Counted from the first letter of the stretch, positions 959 through 18,282 are shown. The stretch is 26,205 nucleotides of DNA from Chlorobiota bacterium (GCA_037440485.1 JBBIUD010000001.1:1-26205); one strand, 5' to 3'. Program-made: numbers and translations. Notes: generated by a model not told the origin, from the sequence alone.

Positions 959-1828
959 ATGATTAGATTGCTGCTACGGGGTCTTGGATGGCTTACCTGG
1001 CGTATCGGAATGCGTGGACGTCGAATTCTTGCAGCAATCGTGGGATCAGTGTTGTACTATGCCGTCGGTTCGCGCCGCCGATTGACGATCGAAAATGTGC
1101 GCCGGGCTTATCCGACTGAAGACAGGAGCACGGTTACCTCGATCGCTCGGAGGAGCTACAGCAATTTGGTGACCGTGTTTGCGGAATTGTTAGCGACACC
1201 ATACCTTTCGACCCATGAGATTCATGCTGCATTCCGGTTTGTCAATCCAGACGTGGTGCATCGAGCACAGGCAGAAGGGAATGGCATTATACTGTTGAGC
1301 GCTCATCTTGCGAACTGGGAATGGTCTGCACTCGCTGCAGCTATTGAGTTTGGCACTCCGCTGATGGTTATTGTTAAAATCCAGCGCAATCGCGGCTTCA
1401 ATGCATGGCTCGATGATGTTCGGCGTCGTACGGGTAATCACACTGTGCCAATGGATAAGGCAGCACGTCCAATGGTACGGTGGCTGCAACAGGGTGGCAT
1501 CGTTGCACTACTTGGCGATCAAGCAGCCGAGCCGGCAAGCGATGTATTTGCGCCATTGTTTGGCTATCCCGCAGTTACGTATAAAGCACCAGTAATACTT
1601 GCACGCCGTACTGGTGCACCCATTGTTTTTGCATATTGCCGGCGAACCAGCTCGGGAATCTACGATGTTTTTTTTGAACGCATCGCTACAGCTAATGACA
1701 AAAACACACCCATTGAATCGGTCGTCGCTGAGTACAACTACAAACTCGAAGCAGCAATACGCCAGGCTCCAGAACAATGGGTATGGCAACACAATCGTTG
1801 GAAGTATCAACCACCAGACATTCGATGA
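959..1828 (+). CDS. Lipid A biosynthesis acyltransferase family protein (LpxL/HtrB-like lysophospholipid acyltransferase)
   Basis: 289 aa with N-terminal hydrophobic helix, catalytic H-x4-E motif (HLANWE), LGDQ motif and C-terminal PEQWVWQHNRWK. Exact substrate cannot be read from sequence. Confidence 0.85.
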   Translation: MIRLLLRGLGWLTWRIGMRGRRILAAIVGSVLYYAVGSRRRLTIENVRRAYPTEDRSTVTSIARRSYSNLVTVFAELLATPYLSTHEIHAAFRFVNPDVVHRAQAEGNGIILLSAHLANWEWSALAAAIEFGTPLMVIVKIQRNRGFNAWLDDVRRRTGNHTVPMDKAARPMVRWLQQGGIVALLGDQAAEPASDVFAPLFGYPAVTYKAPVILARRTGAPIVFAYCRRTSSGIYDVFFERIATANDKNTPIESVVAEYNYKLEAAIRQAPEQWVWQHNRWKYQPPDIR

Positions 1829-2613
1829 AAATCTCACTTGACGGACATACCGCACTCGTAGGAGGTGCTACCAGTGGGATTGGATGGGCAATAGCCGAGG
1901 CGCTTGCGAGCGCTGGTGCCCGTGTCGTGCTTGTAGCCCGCAATGCCGAGCGGCTAACCGATCGTGTCCAATCACTCGAAGCAAAAACTGCTCGAAAGCA
2001 TGATGCGATTATGGCAAACTACGACAACCCCAGCGATATTGCTACAATCATCGAAACACTCCAGAGCAAACAATTGCAGCCCGATATCATCATCAACAAT
2101 GCCGGAGGACCATCACCGGGCGCTATCGTATCTGCAGAACGCGATGAGTTTCATCGAGCACTCGATCGGCTGATCCTTGCGACACATGCACTGATCCAGG
2201 CATGTCTGCCGACGATGCAGAAGCTACACTGGGGAAGAATCATCAACATTATCTCCACGTCGGTTCGGCAGCCGATCGAAGGACTTGGCGTTTCTAACAC
2301 AATTCGAGCGGCAACAGCAGCATGGGCGAAAACACTCTCACTCGAGCTTGCACCGCTGGGTATTACTGTCAACAGTATTCTCCCCGGAGCAACGCGGACT
2401 AAGCGACTGGAGGATCTGATACGACGTCGAGCGCAACAACAGGGCGTAGATCCTGATGTCATTGCCGAGCAAATGCGCCAAGAAATTCCGATGAGACGGT
2501 TTGCCGAACCCTCAGAAATTGCAGCGTTGGCGGTTTTCCTCTGCTCCGATTATGCCGCGTACATTACCGGTGAGTGCATCCGCGTTGATGGGGGACGGAC
2601 GCGCTGTCTCTAA
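1825..2613 (+). CDS. Short-chain dehydrogenase/reductase, 3-oxoacyl-ACP reductase-like atypical subgroup
   Basis: ATG at 1825 overlaps the upstream stop (ATGA) and is preferred over the 1777 start. Motifs: Rossmann GGATSGIG, NNAGG, SNTIR in place of YxxxK, VNSILPG, and C-terminal YITGECIRVDGG. Confidence 0.88.
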   Translation: MKISLDGHTALVGGATSGIGWAIAEALASAGARVVLVARNAERLTDRVQSLEAKTARKHDAIMANYDNPSDIATIIETLQSKQLQPDIIINNAGGPSPGAIVSAERDEFHRALDRLILATHALIQACLPTMQKLHWGRIINIISTSVRQPIEGLGVSNTIRAATAAWAKTLSLELAPLGITVNSILPGATRTKRLEDLIRRRAQQQGVDPDVIAEQMRQEIPMRRFAEPSEIAALAVFLCSDYAAYITGECIRVDGGRTRCL

Positions 2614-2615
2614 CG

Positions 2616-2646
2616 AAAAAAGCGATGCTCACCACGAGCACCGCTT
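2616..2646 (-). terminator. Intrinsic terminator downstream of tRNA-fMet
   Basis: Plus strand reads AAAAA-AGCG-A-TGCTC-ACCAC-GAGCA-C-CGCTT. On the minus strand this is a 10-bp hairpin whose 3' end runs into a U6 tract, about 10 nt past the tRNA 3' end. Confidence 0.72.
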
Positions 2647-2655
2647 CACAAGGAG

Positions 2656-2728
<73 letters not shown>

Positions 2729-2742
2729 GTCAATTTGCATTG

Positions 2743-2750
2743 CAAAAATA
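2743..2750 (-). promoter_or_regulatory. Bacteroidota-type -7 promoter element (TAnnTTTG) for tRNA-fMet
   Basis: Minus strand reads cgTATTTTTGca, ending 14 nt before the tRNA 5' end, with a TTG 21 nt upstream of it. Confidence 0.6.
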
Positions 2751-2795
2751 CGCAATCTTTGTTCAATTCTGCAACAGCTTGTTAGAAACGGAAAC

Positions 2796-5237: not shown

Positions 5238-6833
5238 GTGAAAGCAATGGAAACGATGCCCGATTCTCTGCATGCTGATCTTGAGCAGCTCTGGAAGCAG
5301 GTCTATAGTGCTGGCGCTCTCATCAAGACATTTGCCGAACAGTTGCGTGCCTCCCGGGATGCAGTGCGCAAACTGGAAACGGAAGTTGCCAGTCTTTCGG
5401 CTCAACTACGAAGCCGAGAGGAACAGTTGGATTCAATGCGGATGGAGTTCGATCATATCGAGGAACTCCGTACTGCGCTGAGCAAAGCAGAAGGAGATCT
5501 CCAGGCTGCGCACGTAACCATTGCTCAGCTCCGTGAGCATTTGACACAGGTAGAGCAGCAGCATCACGATGCAGAGCGGTTGCAGCAGCAAGTCGAGCGC
5601 CTCCGCAACGAACTATCCACGCTCCAACAGCAATATGCAGCACTGACCGACGATTATCGTACTGCACAAGAAACGATTGCATCGTTGAACACGTTCGAGG
5701 AAGAACGCGCTAATCTCCAGGCAAAGATTGCCGAACTTGAGCATGAGCATTTACGTAGTGTAGCTGCCAGAGAGGAGCTTGCGTATCTGCGGGAACAGAT
5801 CGAACAACTCCATCAGGAGCGCGAGCACCTTTTGCAGTCGCTCCAACAGCAAAAGCACGAGATAGAGCTGTTGACTAAGCGCAGCCAAGAATACGAACAC
5901 CTTCAAAGAGAGCTTGATTCTGCCAAGCATACGATTGCGTCCTACCAGGAAAAACTTACTGCCTGCGAAGCAGACATTGCTCGACTCAGCGAACAACTAC
6001 GCCAGGCAGAATCTGCTCTATCGGCGGCAACCCCTGATGCACAATTTGCGCGCTGGAAAGCTGAGCAGGAAGAACTTCTCCGGTCACGCGAGCTGGAACA
6101 TCAACGCTTGCAAGAACAATATCAGGCGCTGGAGCAACAGCTTGCGCGTTTACGCGAAGAGCTGGAATCCCAACGCCAACTGAATACAGAACTTGAACAC
6201 CAGCTCAAAGACCAGCGTCAGGATCAACACCCACAGTCGGCTGATGCGATAGAAGAGGAGTTGATCTCCCTTCGACGCGAGTTAGAGCTTGCTGAGCGTG
6301 CATCGGCTCAGCGTCAGGAGCAACTGAACGAACTGTCCGATGAAATCGCACGCTTGCGAAAACAGATCCTCGAGTATCAGCAAAACGATAAGTCCATCGA
6401 ACAGCGCATTACCGAGGCAATTTCTCCGCTGGAAATCAAGCTTCAAGCCGCTGAACGCGAACGCAAACATCTTCAAGTCCAGCTTATGTCACAGCGTCAG
6501 CGCATTCATCAGCTTGAAGACCAGATTCGGATTGAACTGGAACGAAATATTGTTCTCAAACGCCGAATTCGTCAGCTTGAAGGGCAGCCACCGAAAGTAC
6601 AGATTGAACACATCGTCGAACAGCTCGATCAGCTTGTCGAAGCACTCCGCTCGCAGGCAGAGCATTCCCAGCAGCAGGTGGGGCTGGCACCGCCGGTGGA
6701 AGAGGTGACATCGCTCATTGAGCGAATCGAGAAAGTTGTGTCGTACCACCACCGGTCCATTGACGATGAACTGCTCGAAGCGGTCAAGCAATCGCGAGCA
6801 TTGTTAGAGCAGCAGTTGAAGAAGTCAGACTGA
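5238..6833 (+). CDS. Long coiled-coil protein at the ZapB-like position upstream of zapA
   Basis: 531 aa, very E/Q/L/R rich with near-continuous heptad character and no P-loop or hinge. Alternative ATG starts at 5247 and 5256. Confidence 0.8.
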   Translation: MKAMETMPDSLHADLEQLWKQVYSAGALIKTFAEQLRASRDAVRKLETEVASLSAQLRSREEQLDSMRMEFDHIEELRTALSKAEGDLQAAHVTIAQLREHLTQVEQQHHDAERLQQQVERLRNELSTLQQQYAALTDDYRTAQETIASLNTFEEERANLQAKIAELEHEHLRSVAAREELAYLREQIEQLHQEREHLLQSLQQQKHEIELLTKRSQEYEHLQRELDSAKHTIASYQEKLTACEADIARLSEQLRQAESALSAATPDAQFARWKAEQEELLRSRELEHQRLQEQYQALEQQLARLREELESQRQLNTELEHQLKDQRQDQHPQSADAIEEELISLRRELELAERASAQRQEQLNELSDEIARLRKQILEYQQNDKSIEQRITEAISPLEIKLQAAERERKHLQVQLMSQRQRIHQLEDQIRIELERNIVLKRRIRQLEGQPPKVQIEHIVEQLDQLVEALRSQAEHSQQQVGLAPPVEEVTSLIERIEKVVSYHHRSIDDELLEAVKQSRALLEQQLKKSD

Positions 6834-7561: not shown

Positions 7562-9124
7562 ATGGAATACATGACAACACTAGTTCTAAGCGTCATTGGC
7601 TTAGTCCTCGGTTTTGGTATCGCATATTTTGCGGGCACACGCGCAGCAAAAGGCATTATTGCGGACGCCCGCGAAAAGGCAAAATCAATTCTCGAGGAAG
7701 CAGAAAAAGACGCACGTTCGCTCAAGAAAGAAAAGCTCATTGAAGCTAAAGAGGAGCTGCACAAAAAACGCCAAGAACTGGAAAAAGAATTTGCCGCTCG
7801 TCGCAATAAACTCCAACAGCAAGAAAAGCAGATCGCCAGCCGAGAGGAAGCTATCGAAAACAAACTGGAGTTGATTGCACGCAAGGAAAAGCAAATCCAA
7901 CAAACTGACCAGGAGATTCAACGGAAGCAGCGCCTGATTGAACAAAAACTCAAAGAGGCAGAAGCGCTTGTTGCCGAGCAGAATCAACGTCTCGAACGTA
8001 TCACGGGTATGTCACAGGAGGATGCGAAGCGCTATTTGATCGAGAATATGGTCAACGAGGCTCGCGCAGAAGCTGCTCTTCTGGTCAAGCAAATTCGTGA
8101 TGAGGCGCGCCAGCAAGCACAACGCGAAGCGCAAAAGCTTATCATCGAAGCAATTCAGCGGACAGCGTCCGATCATTGCGTCGAGACGACAGTCTCGGTG
8201 GTGACGCTTGCCAGCGAGGAACTCAAAGGTCGCATTATTGGCAAGGAAGGACGCAACATCCGTGCATTCGAATCTGCAACGGGTGTGGATTTGATTATTG
8301 ATGACACACCAGAAGCGGTTGCTATCTCAGCGTTTGATCCCTACCGTCGCGAGGTTGCTCGCATTGCTTTAGAGCGCCTGCTTGCTGATGGACGGATACA
8401 TCCAGCGCGCATCGAAGAAATAGTCGAAAAAGTCCGCAAAGAAGTTGACGAAGAGATCGTTCGTGCCGGGGAGCATGCCGTCATGGAGCTTGGCATTCAC
8501 AACATGCATCCGGAACTGATACGGCATGTTGGTAAAATGAAGTTTCGCTCTAGTTATGGGCAAAATCTACTGGCACACTCTATCGAGGTTGCATTCCTGG
8601 CTGGGATTATGGCGTCAGAACTTGGTTTAGATGTCCATCACGCCAAGCGTGCTGGCTTACTCCACGATGTTGGGAAGGTTCTTGATCGAAACACCGATGG
8701 TCCTCACGCTCTGCTCGGAATGGAACTTGCTAAGCGATACCGCGAGCATCACATCGTATGCAACGCCATAGGTGCTCACCACGAAGACATCGAAATGGAA
8801 TCACCTATTGCGGTGCTGGTACAAGCAGCCGACTCCATTAGCGGGGCACGACCCGGTGCACGACGCGAGTCACTCGAACAGTACATCAAGCGTCTCGAAA
8901 AACTCGAAGAAATTGGTATGAGTTTCGATGGAGTGCAGAAAACATTTGCTATCCAAGCTGGGAGGGAAGTACGGGTCATCGTCGAACCTGAAAAAGTTGA
9001 CGATCTGACCGCTGATCAATTAGCAACGGAGATTGCCAAACGAATCGAACAGGAAATGGAATATCCAGGGCAAATTAGGGTCACCGTTATTCGCGAACGC
9101 CGAAGTTATGCTATTGCGAAATAG
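7562..9124 (+). CDS. rny: Ribonuclease Y
   Basis: N-terminal TM helix, coiled coil, KH domain (GRIIGKEGRNIRAFE), HD domain (HSIEVA...GLLHDVGK...ADSISGARPGARRE) and C-terminal AIQAGREVRV. Confidence 0.97.
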   Translation: MEYMTTLVLSVIGLVLGFGIAYFAGTRAAKGIIADAREKAKSILEEAEKDARSLKKEKLIEAKEELHKKRQELEKEFAARRNKLQQQEKQIASREEAIENKLELIARKEKQIQQTDQEIQRKQRLIEQKLKEAEALVAEQNQRLERITGMSQEDAKRYLIENMVNEARAEAALLVKQIRDEARQQAQREAQKLIIEAIQRTASDHCVETTVSVVTLASEELKGRIIGKEGRNIRAFESATGVDLIIDDTPEAVAISAFDPYRREVARIALERLLADGRIHPARIEEIVEKVRKEVDEEIVRAGEHAVMELGIHNMHPELIRHVGKMKFRSSYGQNLLAHSIEVAFLAGIMASELGLDVHHAKRAGLLHDVGKVLDRNTDGPHALLGMELAKRYREHHIVCNAIGAHHEDIEMESPIAVLVQAADSISGARPGARRESLEQYIKRLEKLEEIGMSFDGVQKTFAIQAGREVRVIVEPEKVDDLTADQLATEIAKRIEQEMEYPGQIRVTVIRERRSYAIAK

Positions 9125-9186
9125 TGTGTCGCGTTCGATCGGGACAAGTCGGAGCGCCGTGTTATGGTGCACTCTTGATCCATGAG

Positions 9187-10080
9187 CTATCGTACCTTGT
9201 GCACGTGGGGATCACTTTTTCGAGAACAAAGTTCTGCTTGTTGTTCTGGATCAGTCTCGGATTCATACTCTTGGAGTTTTTGCCGGAGGTCGTTGCAGAT
9301 CTGAGTGTGGATTTGGCAGATACGACTTTCGGTTAGTCCGAGAATTTCGCCGATTTCCTTGAATGTCAGCTCTTCGTAGTAATAGAGCGTGATGACTAAT
9401 CTTTTACGCTCTGGCAGCTTTTCAATGTAGTTGCGGACAAATTCGATTCGCTCTCGGTGGGCAAGGAGGGTAAAGGGATTTTCCGTGTCGTAGTCGGGAA
9501 TTTCTTCGACTGAATCGTGCTCGTTGCCATCATCGTCGTAATTGACTTCAGAATTCTGCAAGGAAAATGATGCCGTCGCTGCAGCCATAGCATTGAGGTA
9601 TGACTGGTATTCCTCTACCGAAATACCGAGTCGTGATTGAATTTCATCCGGAGATGCTTCTCTCCCCAGCTCGCTCCGGAGTTGATCACTGATTTCTGTG
9701 TATTCGTGGACTTTCCGCCGTGCAGTGCGTGAGAGCCAATCAAGCTTACGCATTTCATCGAGGATAATACCTCGCACGCGTGGTACTGCAAAGGTTTCGA
9801 ACTTTATGCCACGCTCCGGTTCAAAGCGCTCGATGGCATCGTGTAAACCGAGCAATCCAACGTGGAGAAAATCTTCCTCGTCGAGGAGTGCATGCGAGGG
9901 AATGTTCATGTTATAGAGCGTATAGCGCACAATCCAAGTGTAGTGGAGAAGGAGTTGGCGTTTGATTTCTTGTTTGCGCGCTTTCGATGTTCGTTTTGCA
10001 CGAAGCTCACTCCAAAGCTGATCAAGATTATTCTCTTTCGTTGCAGTTACTTCAGGTGTTAATGATTTAGCTGGTGCCAT
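9187..10080 (-). CDS. fliA: RNA polymerase sigma factor FliA/WhiG family (sigma28)
   Basis: Region 2 GLLGLHDAIERFEPERGIKFETFAVPRVRGIILDEMRKLDW, region 3 with REASPDEI, and region 4 LYYYEELTFKEIGEILGLTESRICQIH. Downstream of flhF. Confidence 0.93.
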   Translation of the reverse strand: MAPAKSLTPEVTATKENNLDQLWSELRAKRTSKARKQEIKRQLLLHYTWIVRYTLYNMNIPSHALLDEEDFLHVGLLGLHDAIERFEPERGIKFETFAVPRVRGIILDEMRKLDWLSRTARRKVHEYTEISDQLRSELGREASPDEIQSRLGISVEEYQSYLNAMAAATASFSLQNSEVNYDDDGNEHDSVEEIPDYDTENPFTLLAHRERIEFVRNYIEKLPERKRLVITLYYYEELTFKEIGEILGLTESRICQIHTQICNDLRQKLQEYESETDPEQQAELCSRKSDPHVHKVR

Positions 10081-10164
10081 AGCTATTCGTCCGTGGTAAA
10101 TTAGTTATCAATTGCCGTCAGTGCCTGAATTGAATAGAAAATTTGCATGGTGTCTTGTGGAAGG

Positions 10165-10536
10165 TTATCCAGACGGTACGCCCGCATTGTTCTGGTCAGA
10201 AATGTTGGCTGTTTGCGATGCGTCGTGTAGGTTCAATGATGCTGCTATTTGTTCTTCTTCAGCCAGGCGCAGTCGCTCGCTTAGTTCTTCCTGCTTGATA
10301 CGATGAATGATTGAGATTGCCACTGCCATGATAATACTGCCAGCTACCGCAAATGCAATAAAGATGAGCATTGCGCGGAGCATAATGCGATAAAGCTCAT
10401 CATCACCAGTGGCAATAGCAAATAGCACGCTCAATGCTGCAGCAAGAGTGCTGACATTGAAAACCAATCGCAGTGGCAGTTGAATAGCTCTTTCGAGCTG
10501 AGCGTCTTGAGCGGGTGACTGTTTACGTTTGCTCAT
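10165..10536 (-). CDS. Hypothetical membrane protein (two predicted TM helices, then a charged helix and a polar tail)
   Basis: 123 aa, 12 nt downstream of the flhF stop on the same strand. Hydrophobic runs LVFNVSTLAAALSVLFAIA and AMLIFIAFAVAGSIIMAVAISII. Confidence 0.75.
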   Translation of the reverse strand: MSKRKQSPAQDAQLERAIQLPLRLVFNVSTLAAALSVLFAIATGDDELYRIMLRAMLIFIAFAVAGSIIMAVAISIIHRIKQEELSERLRLAEEEQIAASLNLHDASQTANISDQNNAGVPSG

Positions 10537-10548
10537 CGCTGATGATCG

Positions 10549-11733
10549 CTACGCAGTCGTGAACATAGTGCGATGTTGTGTTGGTACCAAGAACCGAAGC
10601 AAATGGTCAACCGATGGTTCGGTAATGTCGTCGGGGAGTTGCGTGCCCGTAGTTAGGAGCGAGAGCGGAATACGCAATTCCCAAAACAGTGGAAGCAAAT
10701 GTCCGCATCGCGGAGACTCATCGAGCTTGGTCAATGCAATGCGGAAAGATGCATTACCGCTTGCACGCTGCAAAAGAGTTTTTGCGATTTCCGTATCACA
10801 CGAAGCAGGGAGCGTAAGAACAACAAGACCATTCGACCGTACAACGACATCAATGAGCATCTCCGAAAGTGGCGACGTTCTCTGCGATGGTGGAGGCAAG
10901 TCTACAAGCGTGATTGACTCTGGTGCTCGTGCTGGCAAGTTTGCAACGTGATCGCGCGTGCGGATAATCTCAAGCGGCATTTGCACGAGTGCAGAAAACG
11001 ATCGAATTTGTTCAACAGCAGCAATGCGCTCGGTGTCGGCTGTGACAAGTCGCATTGTTTTTTCAGGATATGCACGGTGGAGGAGTATGGCAGCTTTCAT
11101 CAGCGTTGTTGTTTTTCCGCTACCACTTGGACCTGCGAAAGCTATCAACGTCGGTGGTCCCTCCACTATGAAACGACGTGTCGGTAGAAGCTCAACCAGG
11201 ATGCTGTGCAATCGCTGAATGCACTCGTCAAGATCGTAAGCCGGCTGATCACCGGCAATGCGCGAAATCAAATAACCCGCATGGTGATCACTAAACCCTG
11301 CGTCGCGGAGTAGTTGATACATTGTCCGATATGGATCGGGTAGAATCGCACTGTATCGGTAGGCAACTGCATGCGTGAGTGCAGTTAGCTTAGCCGACAA
11401 TTGATGAATCTCTTCCTGCAGTGCAAGTATTGTGGAATCGCTTGTAGGGTGGGGCGATTGCTCAAGGTAATATCGCAGCGGAACCGGTTCAGCTTGATGC
11501 TGAGTCGGGCGAGTCCGTGGAAATGTTGGTGCGCCCGCAGCAGTGGCGATTGTGCTGCTGTGATCACTGCGGACGCCTGTGGACATACCGACAACCTCGG
11601 CATAGGGTGAACCGTTGCTATCAATACCTGAGTTCGTTGCCAGAAGCAGTGCATCCTCGCCAAGCTCTTGTCGCATTGCATCGAGTGCCTGGCGCAGCGT
11701 CGGTGCGATAAATTTTTTTGTTCGCGACATCAT
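10549..11733 (-). CDS. flhF: Flagellar biosynthesis SRP-type GTPase FlhF (divergent)
   Basis: N-terminal KKFIAPTLRQALDAMRQELGEDALLL, G1 GPSGSGKTTT, DTERIAAVEQI, G4 TKLDE and GTQLPDDI. G3 reads DLPP instead of DTAG. Start set at ATG 11733 (or 11730), with GGAGG 10 nt upstream. Confidence 0.88.
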   Translation of the reverse strand: MMSRTKKFIAPTLRQALDAMRQELGEDALLLATNSGIDSNGSPYAEVVGMSTGVRSDHSSTIATAAGAPTFPRTRPTQHQAEPVPLRYYLEQSPHPTSDSTILALQEEIHQLSAKLTALTHAVAYRYSAILPDPYRTMYQLLRDAGFSDHHAGYLISRIAGDQPAYDLDECIQRLHSILVELLPTRRFIVEGPPTLIAFAGPSGSGKTTTLMKAAILLHRAYPEKTMRLVTADTERIAAVEQIRSFSALVQMPLEIIRTRDHVANLPARAPESITLVDLPPPSQRTSPLSEMLIDVVVRSNGLVVLTLPASCDTEIAKTLLQRASGNASFRIALTKLDESPRCGHLLPLFWELRIPLSLLTTGTQLPDDITEPSVDHLLRFLVPTQHRTMFTTA

Positions 11734-11773
11734 TGGGTTTGTGCCTCCATGCAGTCTGTACACTATAGCTACC

Positions 11774-11789
11774 AGTAAAAACTGTGCCA
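11774..11789 (-). promoter_or_regulatory. Putative sigma54 (-24/-12) promoter for flhF-hyp-fliA
   Basis: Minus strand TGGCACAGTTTTTACT versus consensus TGGCACG-N4-TTGCW. Spacing is correct, but the conserved -13 G is A. It predicts a start near 11763, about 30 nt before the flhF ATG. Confidence 0.45.
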
Positions 11790-11964
11790 GCTCTGATTCA
11801 CACTGCCAGCCGATGCCTCGCCGTATATTGCATGTGTGATGTATTGGTGGTATTTTCCATCGCTACGTTCTTCGGTTTAGCGGTGAATCCCGAGCGCCTT
11901 CATCCCGTAACCCTGCAGTATTGTTCGGGCGTTCGACTTTACGCAACGATAATTCGATGATTCG

Positions 11965-13065
11965 ATGACCTCAGAACAGTCAGCCCCACTCGGGCAATTG
12001 TACATTGTTTCGACCCCTATCGGTAATCCCGACGACATTACCCTTCGTGCACTGGCGGTCCTTCAAACCGCCGATCTTGTGGTCTGCGAGGAGCGTGGGT
12101 ATGCACAAAAGCTACTCGGCTACTACGACATTGAGAAAGAATTGATCGAATTAAACGAACACAACGATGCCGACGCAACGATCGAATGTGTAAAGTTGCT
12201 CGGAGCAGGGAAAAAACTTGCGCTCATTAGCGATGCAGGAACACCTGTTCTTGCTGATCCGGGTGGACTTTTAGTTGCGGCTGCAATTCGCTATGGCTAC
12301 GCTGTGCATGTTATTCCTGGACCGTCGAGCATTACAGCCGCGCTGGTTCGATCCGGTCTCCCGACCGATCAATTTCTCTATGCTGGCTTCTTGAGTCGTA
12401 AAAAAGAGGAGCGGGAGAAACAAGCTCGCCTATTGGCTCTTGAACCACGAACGATTGTTGTGCTCGATACGCCGTATCGCCTCAATACGGTCTTGAGCAC
12501 GTTAGCAGATGTGATGCCTGAGCGACGAGCGTATATCGGTTGCAATTTGACCATGCCGAGTGAATCACACCATTACGGTAGCTTGACCGAACTGCGGGAT
12601 TACTTTGCCCAACACCGCTTCCGCGGAGAGTATGCGATTGTTATCGAAGGCAATCCCTCGGTGAAACAATGGTATGAACTGTTGAACGCTGCAACCTCAC
12701 ACCACATCGCCAATGGCGCTCAACTCCAGAAAGACGAGCACTCTCTGGCTGAGCAAAGCGATGCTGATGCGAAAGTCGGTAATGCTCAGAGCGAACGTTA
12801 CCACCAAGCACGCCAGCAATACGCGCACCGGTATCACGGGAATAATCGCCGGCGCTTCCGACCGCACTATCACAAACACCATTCGCACCAGCGTGAGGAG
12901 CGGCGTCCATCACTACCCAACACTCACGAAGGGAGTCGGTATGATTACGAGCAACCAATCATTAACTACACGCTGAGTAATCCATACCAGCAGCACAGTC
13001 ATCCCTCAAAAGAGCAGCGTTCGTTGCATCGGGTGCGCCGCCCCAAAAAGCGCTGGCGACGGTAG
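11965..13065 (+). CDS. rsmI: 16S rRNA (cytidine1402-2'-O)-methyltransferase RsmI with long C-terminal low-complexity extension
   Basis: LYIVSTPIGNPDDITLRAL, ALISDAGTPVLADPG, IPGPSSITAALV, FLYAGFL and GEYAIVIEG. About 137 further residues rich in H/R/Q follow. Confidence 0.95.
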   Translation: MTSEQSAPLGQLYIVSTPIGNPDDITLRALAVLQTADLVVCEERGYAQKLLGYYDIEKELIELNEHNDADATIECVKLLGAGKKLALISDAGTPVLADPGGLLVAAAIRYGYAVHVIPGPSSITAALVRSGLPTDQFLYAGFLSRKKEEREKQARLLALEPRTIVVLDTPYRLNTVLSTLADVMPERRAYIGCNLTMPSESHHYGSLTELRDYFAQHRFRGEYAIVIEGNPSVKQWYELLNAATSHHIANGAQLQKDEHSLAEQSDADAKVGNAQSERYHQARQQYAHRYHGNNRRRFRPHYHKHHSHQREERRPSLPNTHEGSRYDYEQPIINYTLSNPYQQHSHPSKEQRSLHRVRRPKKRWRR

Positions 13066-13470: not shown

Positions 13471-15231
13471 ATGTATGCGTTCTGCCTCGTGGTTTGCTTT
13501 TTGGTTGCTATTGGCATGCAATCATGCCATAAGGCTGCCTATTCCACAGAGCAATACCATTACGACGGACCACCGGTAACGGGGGATGTTGTCTTTTTCC
13601 ACCTCCTGTCTGATCCGCAAGGGCTCAATCCCTACACATCCAACGACAACACCGCTTCGACACTTAATCGGCTCATCTTTGATGCCCTCCTGGAACAAAA
13701 CCCAGAAACGCTCGAGCTTGAACCAAGCATTGCACAGTCGCTGCCCGTTATATCCGACGACCACCTGCAGTACACACTTCGGTTGCGGCCGAACGTGTTT
13801 TTTTCCGATGGAATGCCGTTGACCGCTCGCGATGTTGTGTTCAGTTTCAAAGCAGTCAAGAATCCGTACATTCTCGAAGCATCCGCTTTGCGGAATTACT
13901 ATGACGACGTCGAAAATGTATCAGCGCCGGACGACACAACAGTTGTCATCACTATGCGCAAGCCCTATTTCTTGGCGCTTTACTTTTTAGGTGATCTGCG
14001 CATTCTTCCCAAGCATATTCTGGACCCTGAAGGACTCACCGATCGCTATACATTTGCTGAGCTGAACGATCCAACTGCTGCACAGCGCAACTCTGCAATA
14101 AAAAAATTTGCTGAGTGGTTCTCTCGAGCCGAATTGCGACGTGAACCTCAGTATTTGATCGGGTCTGGACCATACATCTTTCGGCAGTGGGATACGGGCA
14201 AACGTGTCGTTTTAGTCCGTAATAAGCAAGCCTGGAAGACTCCACTTTGGTGGCGCCGAGCCTATCCCGATGCTATTGTTGGCGTTGTGATCAATGACCG
14301 TACAGCGGCTCTTTCTGCATTGAAAACCGGAGAGGTGGATTTTATTGATGCGATCCCACCGGCGCTTTATGACGAACAGCTCGATACAGCGCGACTGGCG
14401 TATATCCGGAAAGGAAAGTACGAACAGTCTGTCTACACATACATTGGCTGGAACATGCGCAAACCACTTTTTCGCGATCGGCGTGTGCGGCAGGCGCTGT
14501 CGCATCTTGCCAATCGGGACTACTGGATAAGCACGATTGTGCGAGGTTATGCGCAACCAATCAACGGTCCGGTCTATCGCAATCGTCCCGAATACGACAC
14601 AACGCTTCCGGCGTACGATTTCAATCCTTCTCGTGCACTGGAGCTTCTCGCTCAAGCTGGCTGGAAAGACCGCAACGGCGACGGTATTCTCGACAACATC
14701 ATTGATGGCAAACTGACGAACTTTGAATTTGCACTCAGCTTCAATGCAGGCAATGAAACCCGCGAGAATATTGCAATTCTCTACTCGACGGAGCTTCGCA
14801 AATACGGCATTGTCTGCAATGTGCAAAAGCTTGAATGGTCAGTCTTCTTACGGCAACTCAGCGCTCAACAATTCGACGCGTATATCGGTGCGTGGGTCAA
14901 CGATAATATCCCAACCGATCCATACCAGCTCTGGCACTCATCCCAAGCAGATAATCGCGGATCGAATTACGTAGGATTTCGCAATCGCCGTGCTGATGAA
15001 CTCATCGAACGCAATCGGGTCGAGTTCGATCCCAACAAACGACTTCTGTTGATGCGAGAATTCCAGCGCATCGTCCACGAAGAAGCACCGTACACCTTTC
15101 TCTGGACGCCAGAGATACTGACAGCCTACAACAGGCGCTTGGCAAACGTTCGCTTTTATTCGGTTCGACCGCCGTATGTGATACCGAATTGGTTCGTGCC
15201 CCCACATCTGCAGCAACACGTTGTGCAATGA
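13471..15231 (+). CDS. ABC transporter substrate-binding lipoprotein, family 5 (OppA/AppA-like)
   Basis: Signal peptide with lipobox (GMQS-C) from ATG 13471. Contains LRPNVFFSDGMPLTARDVVFS, IGSGPY, YIGWN...PLFRDRRVRQAL and GSNYVGFRN. Confidence 0.9.
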   Translation: MYAFCLVVCFLVAIGMQSCHKAAYSTEQYHYDGPPVTGDVVFFHLLSDPQGLNPYTSNDNTASTLNRLIFDALLEQNPETLELEPSIAQSLPVISDDHLQYTLRLRPNVFFSDGMPLTARDVVFSFKAVKNPYILEASALRNYYDDVENVSAPDDTTVVITMRKPYFLALYFLGDLRILPKHILDPEGLTDRYTFAELNDPTAAQRNSAIKKFAEWFSRAELRREPQYLIGSGPYIFRQWDTGKRVVLVRNKQAWKTPLWWRRAYPDAIVGVVINDRTAALSALKTGEVDFIDAIPPALYDEQLDTARLAYIRKGKYEQSVYTYIGWNMRKPLFRDRRVRQALSHLANRDYWISTIVRGYAQPINGPVYRNRPEYDTTLPAYDFNPSRALELLAQAGWKDRNGDGILDNIIDGKLTNFEFALSFNAGNETRENIAILYSTELRKYGIVCNVQKLEWSVFLRQLSAQQFDAYIGAWVNDNIPTDPYQLWHSSQADNRGSNYVGFRNRRADELIERNRVEFDPNKRLLLMREFQRIVHEEAPYTFLWTPEILTAYNRRLANVRFYSVRPPYVIPNWFVPPHLQQHVVQ

Positions 15232-15899
15232 ATCGCCACCGTCTGCGCCAGTTGATTAGCGAAGGAGAAGGTGTGAGCCTCGAGTTTAAGCGACGTTTTA
15301 CTTCTCCGGAAAAGATTGCCAAAGAAATCTGTGCGTTCGCCAACACGCACGGTGGGTATCTGCTTTTCGGTGTAGATGACGACGGGACGATCGTCGGCGT
15401 CGAAAGCGAAAAGGAACAGATCGAATTGGTGCAACATGCTGCGGAATTCTGTATCAAACCGCCTGTGCCTGTTCAGATTGAAGTCGTCGAGATCGAATGG
15501 AAAGATGTTGTGGTTGTTCGTGTGGAGTCAAGCAGTGAGCGACCGCATGCTGTTGTCGGTGCCGATGGTCGAGATAATCGGCGGGGTATCGTGTACGTTC
15601 GCAGCCGTGCCGAATCCGTTCAAGCAAGCCATGAGATGGTGCGGCTGATGCGCGAGCAACGTCCCGATGCTCGTCCACTGCTTCTCTACATTGGTGATCG
15701 AGAGCGCAGACTCTTTGCATACCTCGAAGAGCATCAGCGTATCACGGTCGCCGAATTTGCTCGGTTAGTCAACATCTCGCGCCGTCGCGCATTGCAACTG
15801 CTGATTCGCTTGGTCCGCGCTCAAGTTCTTATCCTGCACACCGACGCACCGACCAACTACTTCACGCTTGTTGATGATGGAATTGCACATCAGCCTTGA
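15228..15899 (+). CDS. AlbA_2 (Schlafen-like) domain protein with C-terminal winged helix-turn-helix
   Basis: ATG overlaps the upstream stop (ATGA). Contains EGEGVSLEFK, ICAFANTHGGYLLFGVDDDG and VYVRSRAESVQA, then the wHTH-like LFAYLEEHQRITVAEFARLVNISRRRALQLLIRLV. Confidence 0.87.
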   Translation: MNRHRLRQLISEGEGVSLEFKRRFTSPEKIAKEICAFANTHGGYLLFGVDDDGTIVGVESEKEQIELVQHAAEFCIKPPVPVQIEVVEIEWKDVVVVRVESSSERPHAVVGADGRDNRRGIVYVRSRAESVQASHEMVRLMREQRPDARPLLLYIGDRERRLFAYLEEHQRITVAEFARLVNISRRRALQLLIRLVRAQVLILHTDAPTNYFTLVDDGIAHQP

Positions 15900-18282
15900 G
15901 CATTTGCTTCGACAAACATTTGGCTTTACCGCGTTCCGTCCTGGTCAGCGTGAGATAATCGAGGCTATTCTGCGCGGACGTGATGTGCTCGGCATCCTTC
16001 CGACCGGCAGTGGTAAATCGCTCTGCTACCAACTACCGGCCGTTGCAAGTTCTGCTGTGACGCTTGTGATCTCGCCGCTGGTTGCATTGATGCACGATCA
16101 GGTTAGCGCACTTCAACAGCGGGGAATACCGTCCACAGCGATTACCAGCACGCTTGGGAGCGAAGAAATTGCCTACCGACTCCGTTCTGCACAGCTCAAT
16201 CACGTTCGACTTCTGTACATTGCTCCCGAGCGACTTGAAAGCACTGGATTCCTTGAGCACCTTCGTCGTATCAACGTCGAGCGAATTGTTGTTGATGAAG
16301 CACATTGCATAAGCCAGTGGGGTCATGATTTTCGCCCTGCATACATGCGCATCAGGAACCTGGTGCATGTGATTGGTCGCAAGCAAATTGTTGCACTAAC
16401 TGCCACTGCGACACCACGCGTGCAGCACGATATTCTTGCTCAGCTTGGTATGCGTGACCCTTACGTGCATATCGAGAATTTCGACCGTCCGAATTTAGGA
16501 TTCTGCGTTGAGGAATGCCCTCCCTCGAAAGGTTATCAGCAAAAAGCAGCTCGGGTCGCAGATGCCGTTGAGCGATGCCGTGGAGCTGCGATTATTTATG
16601 TGGGCACTCGCCGTGCTACCGAGATTATATCGGCGCACCTTCGGTCGTTTGGAATCAATGCACGATCGTATCATGCTGGCATGCCTGATGCGATGAGACT
16701 GAATGTGCAGGAATGGTTTATGGCGGACTCTACGCCGGTGCTTGTTGCAACGGTAGCGTTCGGGATGGGCATTGACAAACCTGATGTTCGGCTTGTTGCG
16801 CACTGCGATCTTCCACTTAGCATCGAGAACTACTACCAAGAAGCCGGACGTGCCGGACGCGATGGGCGCGATGCAACGTGCCTACTGCTGTATTCGCATG
16901 GCGATGAGCGACTCCAGCGGCGCTTGATTGAATCGCAATTTCCACCCAGACGATTGGTTGAAGAAACCTATAACCTCATCGCAGAGCGATTACGAGTTGC
17001 CGTCGGGTTGCAAAGCAGTGCAGTATTACGCGATGATCCGGCAACGCTGGCACGTGCCCTTTCGTGCACAGTGAACCAACTTGAGAACGTGATTGATTTT
17101 TTGGAACGGCAGCAGCTTCTGTCCCGGCGTCGCGGTAATCGTTCTCTGCAGGTACGCATAGCGACCAGTCGCCAGCGGTGGCTTGAATACTGCTCAACTG
17201 CACCTGCAGATCGTGCTGCAGCATTGAATGCGCTGCTCCGTTCCCTTGGACCGTCTGCTTATGATGATGCAGTCGAACTATCGCTCGATGATCTTGAACA
17301 GCGACATGCTGTTTCCGTTGATGAACTCTACCGAGCGCTACGAGCTGCTGAGCTTGCTCGGATCATCGAAGTGTATCCCGGAAGCGACGGCGATGGTCTC
17401 CGATTGGTTGGGGAACGGTATAGTCGCCAGCGCTTACCCATCGAATGGCACCAGATTGATGAACGCCGTGCCGCTGCAGTGGAGAAGGCTATGGCAATGC
17501 TCGATTACGCGCGGTCGGCTCAATGTAAGCGTGCAATCATTCTTGCCTACTTTGGGCAACCAGCGCCGGACGTCTGTGGAAAATGTTCCTCATGCCGACG
17601 ACCAGCACGCGTGCAGAGCGTGTTTCCTGTGCATAAGCGTTCTGCATACGAAGAATTTATACGGCGAGTATTGGTCAGTATCATTGCCGACTATGATGGA
17701 TTACTTACGGTCCCGCTTGCTACTGCAATTGCCAATGGTCAATCCAACGATCAGATTGTTGCTCTTGGTGCGCATCGCAGCGAATATTTTGGGCAGCTTG
17801 TCGGCGTTTCACCGACGATCCTACGAACACGCTTTGACGAATTGATCCTTGATGGATACCTGGAACTCAAGCGACCAACAAACAGGCTGCGCATTACTGA
17901 TGCTGGATATACCTTGATCGGTCGGACGAGAGCGCGTACGGATTTGTCCAAACCGTCAACGCCAGAACAACTTCTTGACTCAACGGTCCAAAAGAGCATC
18001 GAGCTTGCACGTCAAGGGTATTCGCCTGCGCAGATTGCTCAAATGCGGGATCTATCGTTGACAACCATCGTCAGCCACCTTGTGCAAGCCCTCTCTGTTG
18101 GCGTTGATCTTCCACGCGCGACGCTGATAGATAAGCGTCTTTATCAAGAAACGTGTGCCTTTATTAGCCAGCGCCCCAATGCATTGCTGCGCGATTTACA
18201 AGCATATATCGGTGGCATGTACGATGTGGCATTGCTCCGCTTAGCCTTAGCGTTTGCGCGACGAGAGTGTTCCGCCAGTTGA
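15877..18282 (+). CDS. recQ: RecQ-family ATP-dependent DNA helicase
   Basis: LPTGSGKSLCYQLP, DEAHCISQWGHDFRP, ALTATAT, VATVAFGMGIDKPDVR and YYQEAGRAGRDG. Zn motif CKR..ILAYFG..CGKCSSC, an RQC-like winged helix and a C-terminal HTH_40-like segment. Start could be 15874. Overlaps the upstream gene by about 23 nt. Confidence 0.95.
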   Translation: MELHISLEHLLRQTFGFTAFRPGQREIIEAILRGRDVLGILPTGSGKSLCYQLPAVASSAVTLVISPLVALMHDQVSALQQRGIPSTAITSTLGSEEIAYRLRSAQLNHVRLLYIAPERLESTGFLEHLRRINVERIVVDEAHCISQWGHDFRPAYMRIRNLVHVIGRKQIVALTATATPRVQHDILAQLGMRDPYVHIENFDRPNLGFCVEECPPSKGYQQKAARVADAVERCRGAAIIYVGTRRATEIISAHLRSFGINARSYHAGMPDAMRLNVQEWFMADSTPVLVATVAFGMGIDKPDVRLVAHCDLPLSIENYYQEAGRAGRDGRDATCLLLYSHGDERLQRRLIESQFPPRRLVEETYNLIAERLRVAVGLQSSAVLRDDPATLARALSCTVNQLENVIDFLERQQLLSRRRGNRSLQVRIATSRQRWLEYCSTAPADRAAALNALLRSLGPSAYDDAVELSLDDLEQRHAVSVDELYRALRAAELARIIEVYPGSDGDGLRLVGERYSRQRLPIEWHQIDERRAAAVEKAMAMLDYARSAQCKRAIILAYFGQPAPDVCGKCSSCRRPARVQSVFPVHKRSAYEEFIRRVLVSIIADYDGLLTVPLATAIANGQSNDQIVALGAHRSEYFGQLVGVSPTILRTRFDELILDGYLELKRPTNRLRITDAGYTLIGRTRARTDLSKPSTPEQLLDSTVQKSIELARQGYSPAQIAQMRDLSLTTIVSHLVQALSVGVDLPRATLIDKRLYQETCAFISQRPNALLRDLQAYIGGMYDVALLRLALAFARRECSAS

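Follow-up and report, generated by a model that had tools for sequence, protein, structure and literature searches.

A conserved proline-rich loop in place of the G3 motif of an FlhF homologue from Kapabacteria

FlhF is the third SRP-type GTPase. In GTPases of this type, the Gly of the G3 motif DTAGR contacts the gamma-phosphate through its backbone NH, and the Arg contributes to the composite site formed in the GTP-dependent dimer. According to a 2025 review, flhF and flhG are "consistently encoded together" and form a conserved switch, in which the DQAxxLR helix of FlhG stimulates hydrolysis in the FlhF homodimer (PMC12826062). The window analysed here, a stretch of 26,205 nucleotides from a Chlorobiota bacterium, raises the question of what becomes of such a switch when its G3 motif is replaced and FlhG is missing. 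An earlier note on this DNA had read DLPP in place of DTAG in an flhF homologue, and proposed a candidate pseudo-GTPase whose altered loop would make FlhG dispensable. Is the loop genuine, which of the two changes came first, and what might the protein still do?

An FlhF homologue beside fliA

The flhF homologue occupies positions 10549-11733 on the minus strand. Its open frame (10549-11763, 404 codons) reaches a GTG at 11763, and the ATG at 11733, with GGAGG upstream, is the probable start; the resulting protein has 394 amino acids and the B-N-G domain architecture. TIGR03499 was the best NCBIfam match (118 bits, residues 15-279), under the curated cut-off of 174.15, and the Pfam SRP54 match was limited to the P-loop region. 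By sequence, the best match in the PDB was FlhF of B. subtilis (2px0, E 5.5e-21). Canonical FlhF structures considered for comparison were those of B. subtilis (2PX0, 2PX3 and 3SYN) and S. putrefaciens (8R9R, covering the NG domain, and 9EN1, covering the FliG-interacting domain, FID). An AlphaFold2 model, built from an input alignment of 96 sequences, had a mean pLDDT of 85, with values above 90 in the G domain and of 94-96 in the blocks around the G3 loop. The top Foldseek matches of this model were the FlhF structures 2px0, 2px3 and 8r9r (probability 1.00, TM-scores normalised to the target of 0.76-0.83), and the NG-domain fold of solved FlhF structures is thus predicted for the window protein.

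A B-domain head of the FID type was assigned to the N-terminus (11584-11724, minus strand), based on the TIGR03499 alignment, which begins at residue 15, and on 9en1, the FID of S. putrefaciens FlhF, which was the top PDB match of residues 11-65 with a weak E value of 0.07. The modelled head is a beta-alpha-beta unit with a pLDDT of about 93, and its sequence is almost invariant among members of the genus.

Downstream of flhF, after a gap of 12 nt, lie a gene for a 123-aa membrane protein (10165-10536, minus strand) and fliA, encoding sigma-28 (9187-10080, minus strand; TIGR02479, 230 bits, above the cut-off), which is the last gene of the unit. This order recurs in relatives. Housekeeping genes, including rny, rsmI, pheT and zapA, surround the unit. 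A promoter and terminator scan of positions 9000-12100 found nothing beyond chance. Every genome of the genus contains flhA, although in the source MAG it is split over two contig ends, and several flagellin genes are present alongside it. The retention of flhA and flagellin genes indicates that the flagellar apparatus was kept, as judged from gene content; to our knowledge, no Kapaibacterium is in culture.

The window protein is FlhF as judged by its ancestry, its fold, its head domain and the operon around it, and it has been inherited vertically in a genus of the Candidatus Kapaibacterium type (Kapabacteria; MAGs from hot springs). It shares with canonical FlhF the B-N-G architecture, the predicted NG fold and the FID-type head, as well as the P-loop, the Asp and Arg of G2, the Walker-B Asp, TKLD and a flagellar operon context by fliA. 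It differs in that flhA does not lie upstream, in its G2, G3 and G5 motifs, and in the lack of flhG both downstream and genome-wide. In three respects it falls short of the family: the curated score cut-off (118 versus 174 bits), the G3 motif and an adjacent flhG.

Other features of the window were observed at some distance from flhF. In RsmI, the C-terminus is extended by a tail of about 135 aa with many His, Arg and Gln residues (12652-13065, plus strand; also at L003 2837-4096). The end of this tail (YDYEQPI-NYTLSNPYQQH ... RRPKKRWRR) is also conserved in G007, a closed genome, so the tail is a conserved feature and not read-through. A Schlafen AlbA_2-domain protein (15189-15899, plus strand) overlaps the start of a RecQ-type helicase with a C-terminal HTH_40 domain (15868-18282, plus strand), and the two may form a defence-like pair among the housekeeping genes. 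Between pheT and zapA is an ORF of 531 aa (5238-6833, plus strand) with no Pfam match at E 1e-5.

The proline-rich loop and its conservation

Translation of positions 10882-10911 (minus strand) gives TLVDLPPPSQ, with DLPP exactly at 10891-10902. In the HMMER alignment to 2px0, VDTAGRNFKD of B. subtilis stands opposite VDLPPPSQRT of the window protein. The substitution described in the earlier note is therefore borne out by both translation and alignment. Over its full length the new loop reads DLPPPSQR (10879-10902, minus strand) in place of DTAGRSxx; the Thr, Gly and Arg are lost. DTAGR, which comprises DxxG and the catalytic Arg, is thus absent, and the Asp of DLPPP is its sole remnant. The eighth position of the loop holds a clade-specific Arg (R295).

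The readings of the remaining G motifs also hold in translation and alignment. The G1 P-loop, GPSGSGKT (11110-11133, minus strand), is intact and fits GxxGxGK[ST]; the clade has GPSGSGKTTT versus GPTGVGKTTT in canonical FlhFs. G2 is DTERIAA (11017-11037, minus strand) for DTYRIAA, with the catalytic Asp and Arg kept and the aromatic residue (Tyr or Phe in canonical FlhFs) changed to Glu in all 18 members of the clade described below. The guanine-specificity motif G4, TKLD (10720-10731, minus strand), is intact, fits TKxD and is present in 16 of the 18 members. In the G5 region, TTGTQLPDD (10627-10653, minus strand), GT (10642-10647) stands for the canonical GQ, again in 18 of 18.

The source genome is a fragmented MAG (389 contigs, 90.9% complete), and the FlhF score lies under the TIGR03499 cut-off. 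Both facts would be compatible with a sequencing or assembly error at the G3 site, or with a pseudogene under relaxed selection. Relatives of the window FlhF were searched for among 5.8 billion proteins. Eighteen clusters were recovered at 52-100% identity, after which identity dropped to 33%; their source names place them in Candidatus Kapaibacterium or Kapabacteria, and they come from hot-spring MAGs, Chlorobi bacterium NICIL-2 and bacterium HR20 among them. When 1.84 billion 50%-identity representatives were searched exhaustively with HMMER, the clade corresponded to one representative, and the next match scored 132 bits at 29% identity. All 18 clade proteins have D(L/F)P(P/A)(P/S/T)(S/T)xR at G3, and in all of them Dx-E-R replaces DT[YF]R and G-T replaces G-Q. 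Within the genus, seven of eight genomes contain the new G3 motif, the remaining genome being 86% complete. The DLPP-type loop is therefore conserved in the clade.

Outside the clade, G3 was D-T-x-G (Thr second, Gly fourth) in each of the 78 FlhFs of the same alignment, nearly all of which have the aromatic G2 residue and GQ. When the 142 nearest 50%-identity representatives were compared, 119 matched DTxG[RK]; most of the 23 that deviate have lost the Arg alone, and only three have lost the Gly. Given this uniformity of DTxG in other FlhFs, the deviation at G3 is real and far from chance.

The residues that are fixed in the clade and differ from the canonical consensus (T213S, V215S, A222M, Y245E, T289L, A290P, G291P, S319P, Y369L, Q374T and V376L) concentrate in G1, G2, G3 and G5. 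Common to the clade and canonical FlhFs are GPxGxGKTTT, K223, D243, R246, Q252, D288, TKLDE and G373.

Among the seven genus genomes with the gene, synonymous codon variation was observed at every position of the motif: Leu is encoded by TTG, CTG, CTT and CTA, Ser by both TCN and AGY, and Arg by AGA, CGA, CGG and CGC. The Nei-Gojobori dN/dS ratio was 0.155 for G006/G001 (dS 0.086), the sole unsaturated genome pair, and no more than 0.07 for G000/G007, where dS is saturated. FlhF identity within the genus (52-72%) was close to the value for the neighbouring RsmI (53-63%), and FliA identity was higher (77-83%). These values indicate purifying selection on flhF.

The same motif thus recurs across 18 protein clusters and seven independently assembled genomes, of which two are closed, in an intact frame, with synonymous turnover and a low dN/dS. 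Because the loop is conserved across independent assemblies, it is not an assembly error. Decay and assembly error, either of which could have overturned the initial interpretation, both fail against a clade-wide motif under purifying selection, and we consider an artefact of this kind refuted by the comparative data, with a negligible chance of being correct. As in a pseudo-GTPase, a catalytic G motif (G3) has been lost under purifying selection.

FlhG and the order of events

FlhG was searched for in 41 genomes of the order, using as query P0122, the FlhG of a relative within the order, which had FleN 5j1j and FlhG 4rz2 as its best PDB matches, ahead of MinD. Strong matches were found in families f3, f4, f5, f6, f9 and f11, where FlhF is also present. 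None of the 17 genomes in family f1, to which the window genus and its two closed genomes belong, gave an FlhG match; FlhF is present in this family. In the same search, families f7 and f10 had FlhF with FlhG not found, and neither protein was found in f2 and f8. A CbiA-family scan of the source genome, the two closed genomes and genus g4 detected only partition ParA and Mrp/ApbC; the FlhG of G018, used as a control, was detected. The absence of FlhG suspected earlier is therefore confirmed, both at the locus and genome-wide.

The 123-aa membrane protein that follows FlhF has two transmembrane helices, Arg residues at the start of the second and a polar tail, and matched no Pfam model. A matching architecture and position have been described for FlgV (BB0268 family; PMC10802407), and by this analogy the protein is FlgV-like. 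Its gene is kept order-wide and lies downstream of flhG where flhG is present (flhF-flhG-TM-fliA). As the membrane gene is retained after flhF while flhG is missing, flhG has been cleanly deleted in family f1.

Two candidates for a replacement of FlhG were rejected. The N-terminus of the 123-aa protein reads DQAVKL in G007, which resembles the FlhG enhancer motif DQAxxLR; the same gene also lies downstream of flhG in FlhG-bearing relatives, which makes it an ordinary, FlgV-like member of the operon. MinD was rejected as a stand-in, as the genus has only partition ParA and Mrp/ApbC, and no MinD homologue was found genome-wide in G000, G006 or G007. Placement of the division site in these three genomes must therefore work without a Min system.

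The note had suggested that loss of G3 makes FlhG dispensable. In genus g4, which also belongs to family f1 (locus L009), the order is likewise flhF-TM-fliA without flhG, and FlhF is canonical (GATGAGKTSS, DTYKIGG, DTVGRSHRD, TKLDE and GQ). In a FastTree phylogeny of FlhA, family f1 was monophyletic (0.998), and the window genus, g1, was sister to (g2,(g4,g3)) with a support of 0.953; the g4-g3 node had 0.78, and this branching order rests on FlhA as a single marker. In genus g3, G2 of FlhF is gone, G3 is E-L/V/M-x-x and G4 is T/S-x-x-D, with GxxGSGK[ST] kept. As a canonical FlhF without FlhG is nested beside genera with eroded motifs, the loss of FlhG preceded the erosion of G3. The most parsimonious account is a single loss of FlhG in the family ancestor, when FlhF would still have been canonical, followed by independent erosion of the catalytic loops in g1 (DLPP), g2 and g3; by the FlhA tree, the DLPP loop of g1 would have arisen independently of g3. 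In agreement with this account, in a quick maximum-likelihood tree of FlhF the stem of g1 measured 1.78 substitutions per site versus 0.2-0.45 inside the genus, and other lineages with a degenerate G3 were likewise on long stems. The sequences thus point to several independent erosions of G3 in this order.

The causal arrow of that suggestion is therefore reversed: FlhG was found in none of the 17 genomes of family f1, and the family includes a canonical FlhF. Other families pair FlhG with an FlhF whose G3 is degenerate. FlhG-bearing lineages with an altered G3 include genus g16 (DCDS/DFDS) and families f5 (ELPT/ELPG), f4 (DTPGW) and f9 (DTAGC). Conversely, families f7 and f10 keep DTVGR although FlhG was not found there. 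Across the order, the link between the state of G3 and the presence of FlhG is not one-to-one. A recognisable DQAxxLR enhancer helix is missing from most FlhGs of the order, an N-terminus of the SEQA type being confined to f9 and f11. Taken together, these patterns suggest, short of proof, that FlhG and the FlhF GTPase are weakly coupled throughout the order.

Several observations were made at related loci. The N-termini of most Kapabacteria FlhGs, including those at L013, L011, L037 and L036, are very short, and FlhG may not activate FlhF in much of the order. At L037 and L038 (G037 and G028, genus g16), where G3 of FlhF is DCDS or DFDS and G4 is TFID or SGLD, an intact FlhG (KGGVGKS) lies directly downstream of the eroded FlhF, so both coexist. 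The FlhF ORF at L015 (G008, genus g2; 1513-2781, minus strand) lacks the P-loop Lys (GSGATS), and its G3 region is shortened; its genome match contains an in-frame TAA, and the gene may either be a genuine pseudogene or represent a more advanced stage of erosion. At two loci of family f7 (L012 836-1498, minus strand; L020 736-1407, plus strand), the usual place of flhG, between a canonical FlhF and FliA, is taken by a protein of 221-224 aa that matched nothing in Pfam; FlhG was not found in these genomes.

Nucleotide binding, switching and a scaffold role

The course of events that we propose begins in the family ancestor, where FlhG, a MinD-like activator and antagonist, would have been deleted cleanly from flhF-flhG-flgV-fliA. 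A later burst of change on the genus stem would have rebuilt the active site, converting DTAGR to D-L-P-P-(P/S/T), DTYR to DxER and GQ to GT, and the new site would subsequently have been frozen by purifying selection. Selection acts on the intact P-loop, on the Asp and Arg of G2, on the Walker-B Asp and on TKLD, which argues that guanine nucleotide is still bound, and the intact G1 and G4 fit nucleotide binding with the gamma-phosphate sensor lost. A Pro at the position of the G3 Gly would offer no backbone NH to the gamma-phosphate, and the Arg of DTAGR is gone as well; with both changes, the canonical GTP-dependent composite site and the on/off cycle stimulated by FlhG are not expected to work. 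From these motifs we infer nucleotide binding, a loss of hydrolysis and switching, and a scaffold role. FlhF would then most likely be a constitutive, non-cycling factor for assembly and placement that works through its FliG-binding head and NG scaffold. That the protein binds nucleotide, no longer switches and acts through the conserved FliG-binding head is the reading we favour, with moderate confidence.

Studies of canonical FlhFs bear on this reading in both directions. P. aeruginosa FlhF alleles that are unable to bind or hydrolyse GTP still support polar assembly and FliG binding (PMC6855561), indicating that part of the FlhF job survives without catalysis. In C. jejuni, T368A, which alters the Thr of DTAG, roughly halved GTPase activity and impaired flagellation (PMC6282759), and Vibrio FlhF mutants in motif IV lost polar localisation (PMC5774409). 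As mutants in the G motifs of canonical FlhFs usually lose localisation or flagellation, a scaffold-only role is not the default expectation. These mutants (P. aeruginosa K222A, D294A and R251G; C. jejuni T368A; V. alginolyticus motif IV) touch the same catalytic loops as those changed in Kapaibacterium, and in some species their FliG binding and polar assembly outlast the loss of hydrolysis. They are, however, single laboratory or recent substitutions with fitness costs, whereas the Kapaibacterium change is a multi-residue replacement fixed throughout the genus.

A more extreme possibility is that nucleotide binding has been lost as well, with the G domain serving as a structural module and the P-loop kept for stability of the fold. 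FlhF of g3, in the same family, has lost G2 and G3 and has an altered G4, yet keeps GxxGSGK[ST], and so a retained P-loop is no proof of binding. Compared with g3, the window genus is intermediate: it retains G1 and G4 as well as two residues of G2 (Asp and Arg), and the gamma-phosphate loop alone has become a conserved Pro-rich motif. The presence of TKLD in 16 of 18 clade members and the retention of K217, T218, D243, R246 and D288 form a pattern that is hard to explain without a bound nucleotide, and we regard a pure scaffold as quite improbable.

The strict conservation of the new loop, Glu245 and Arg295 could equally mean that the site has been rebuilt and is still active. FlhF would in that case be a self-sufficient GTPase, predicted to hydrolyse GTP and to cycle without FlhG, with Glu245 of G2 and Arg295 replacing in cis the Arg of DTAGR and the Gln of the FlhG enhancer helix. 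Consistent with this, E245 takes the place of the canonical Tyr or Phe in 18 of 18 clade members, R295 is invariant in the clade at a position that is variable in canonical FlhFs, D243, R246 and Q252 are retained, and the whole loop is under strong purifying selection. P-loop GTPases, however, contact the gamma-phosphate through a backbone NH that is lost with Pro at the G3 Gly position, and we are aware of no SRP-type GTPase that functions in the absence of DxxG. Furthermore, the FlhG-less FlhF of the sister genus keeps a canonical site, so no rebuild was needed. We consider a rebuilt GTPase unlikely. The Pro-rich loop, Glu245 and the relocated Arg295 might also be viewed more broadly as a new design of active site or interface, either a cis-acting GTPase independent of FlhG or a nucleotide-loaded adaptor, in which the new loop would bind a different partner; this too we hold only tentatively, as an unlikely reading.

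FlhF without FlhG is already known from Bacillus cereus. This species resembles Kapaibacterium in being flagellated and in having an FlhF that works without an FlhG homologue; its FlhF is described as a GTP-dependent homodimer (PMC7218170), whereas the Kapaibacterium form has lost G3. In the literature we found no description of a natural FlhF without G3, nor of a 'pseudoGTPase' FlhF.

The annotation of a gene as flhF thus does not imply that flagellar number and position are controlled by a system of the FlhF/FlhG type. The genera of family f1 show successive states of an orphan FlhF: one with a canonical site, one with a Pro-rich gamma-phosphate loop (the window genus), and one in which G2 and G3 are gone. 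If the loop is indeed a new active-site or interface design, the family would record the stepwise rewiring of an SRP-type switch after the loss of its activator. The proteins of this family are concrete candidates for biochemistry and, given their thermophile origin, are likely to be well behaved. Family f1 offers a natural experiment on the need of FlhF for a GTPase cycle and on how a switch turns into a pseudo-enzyme.
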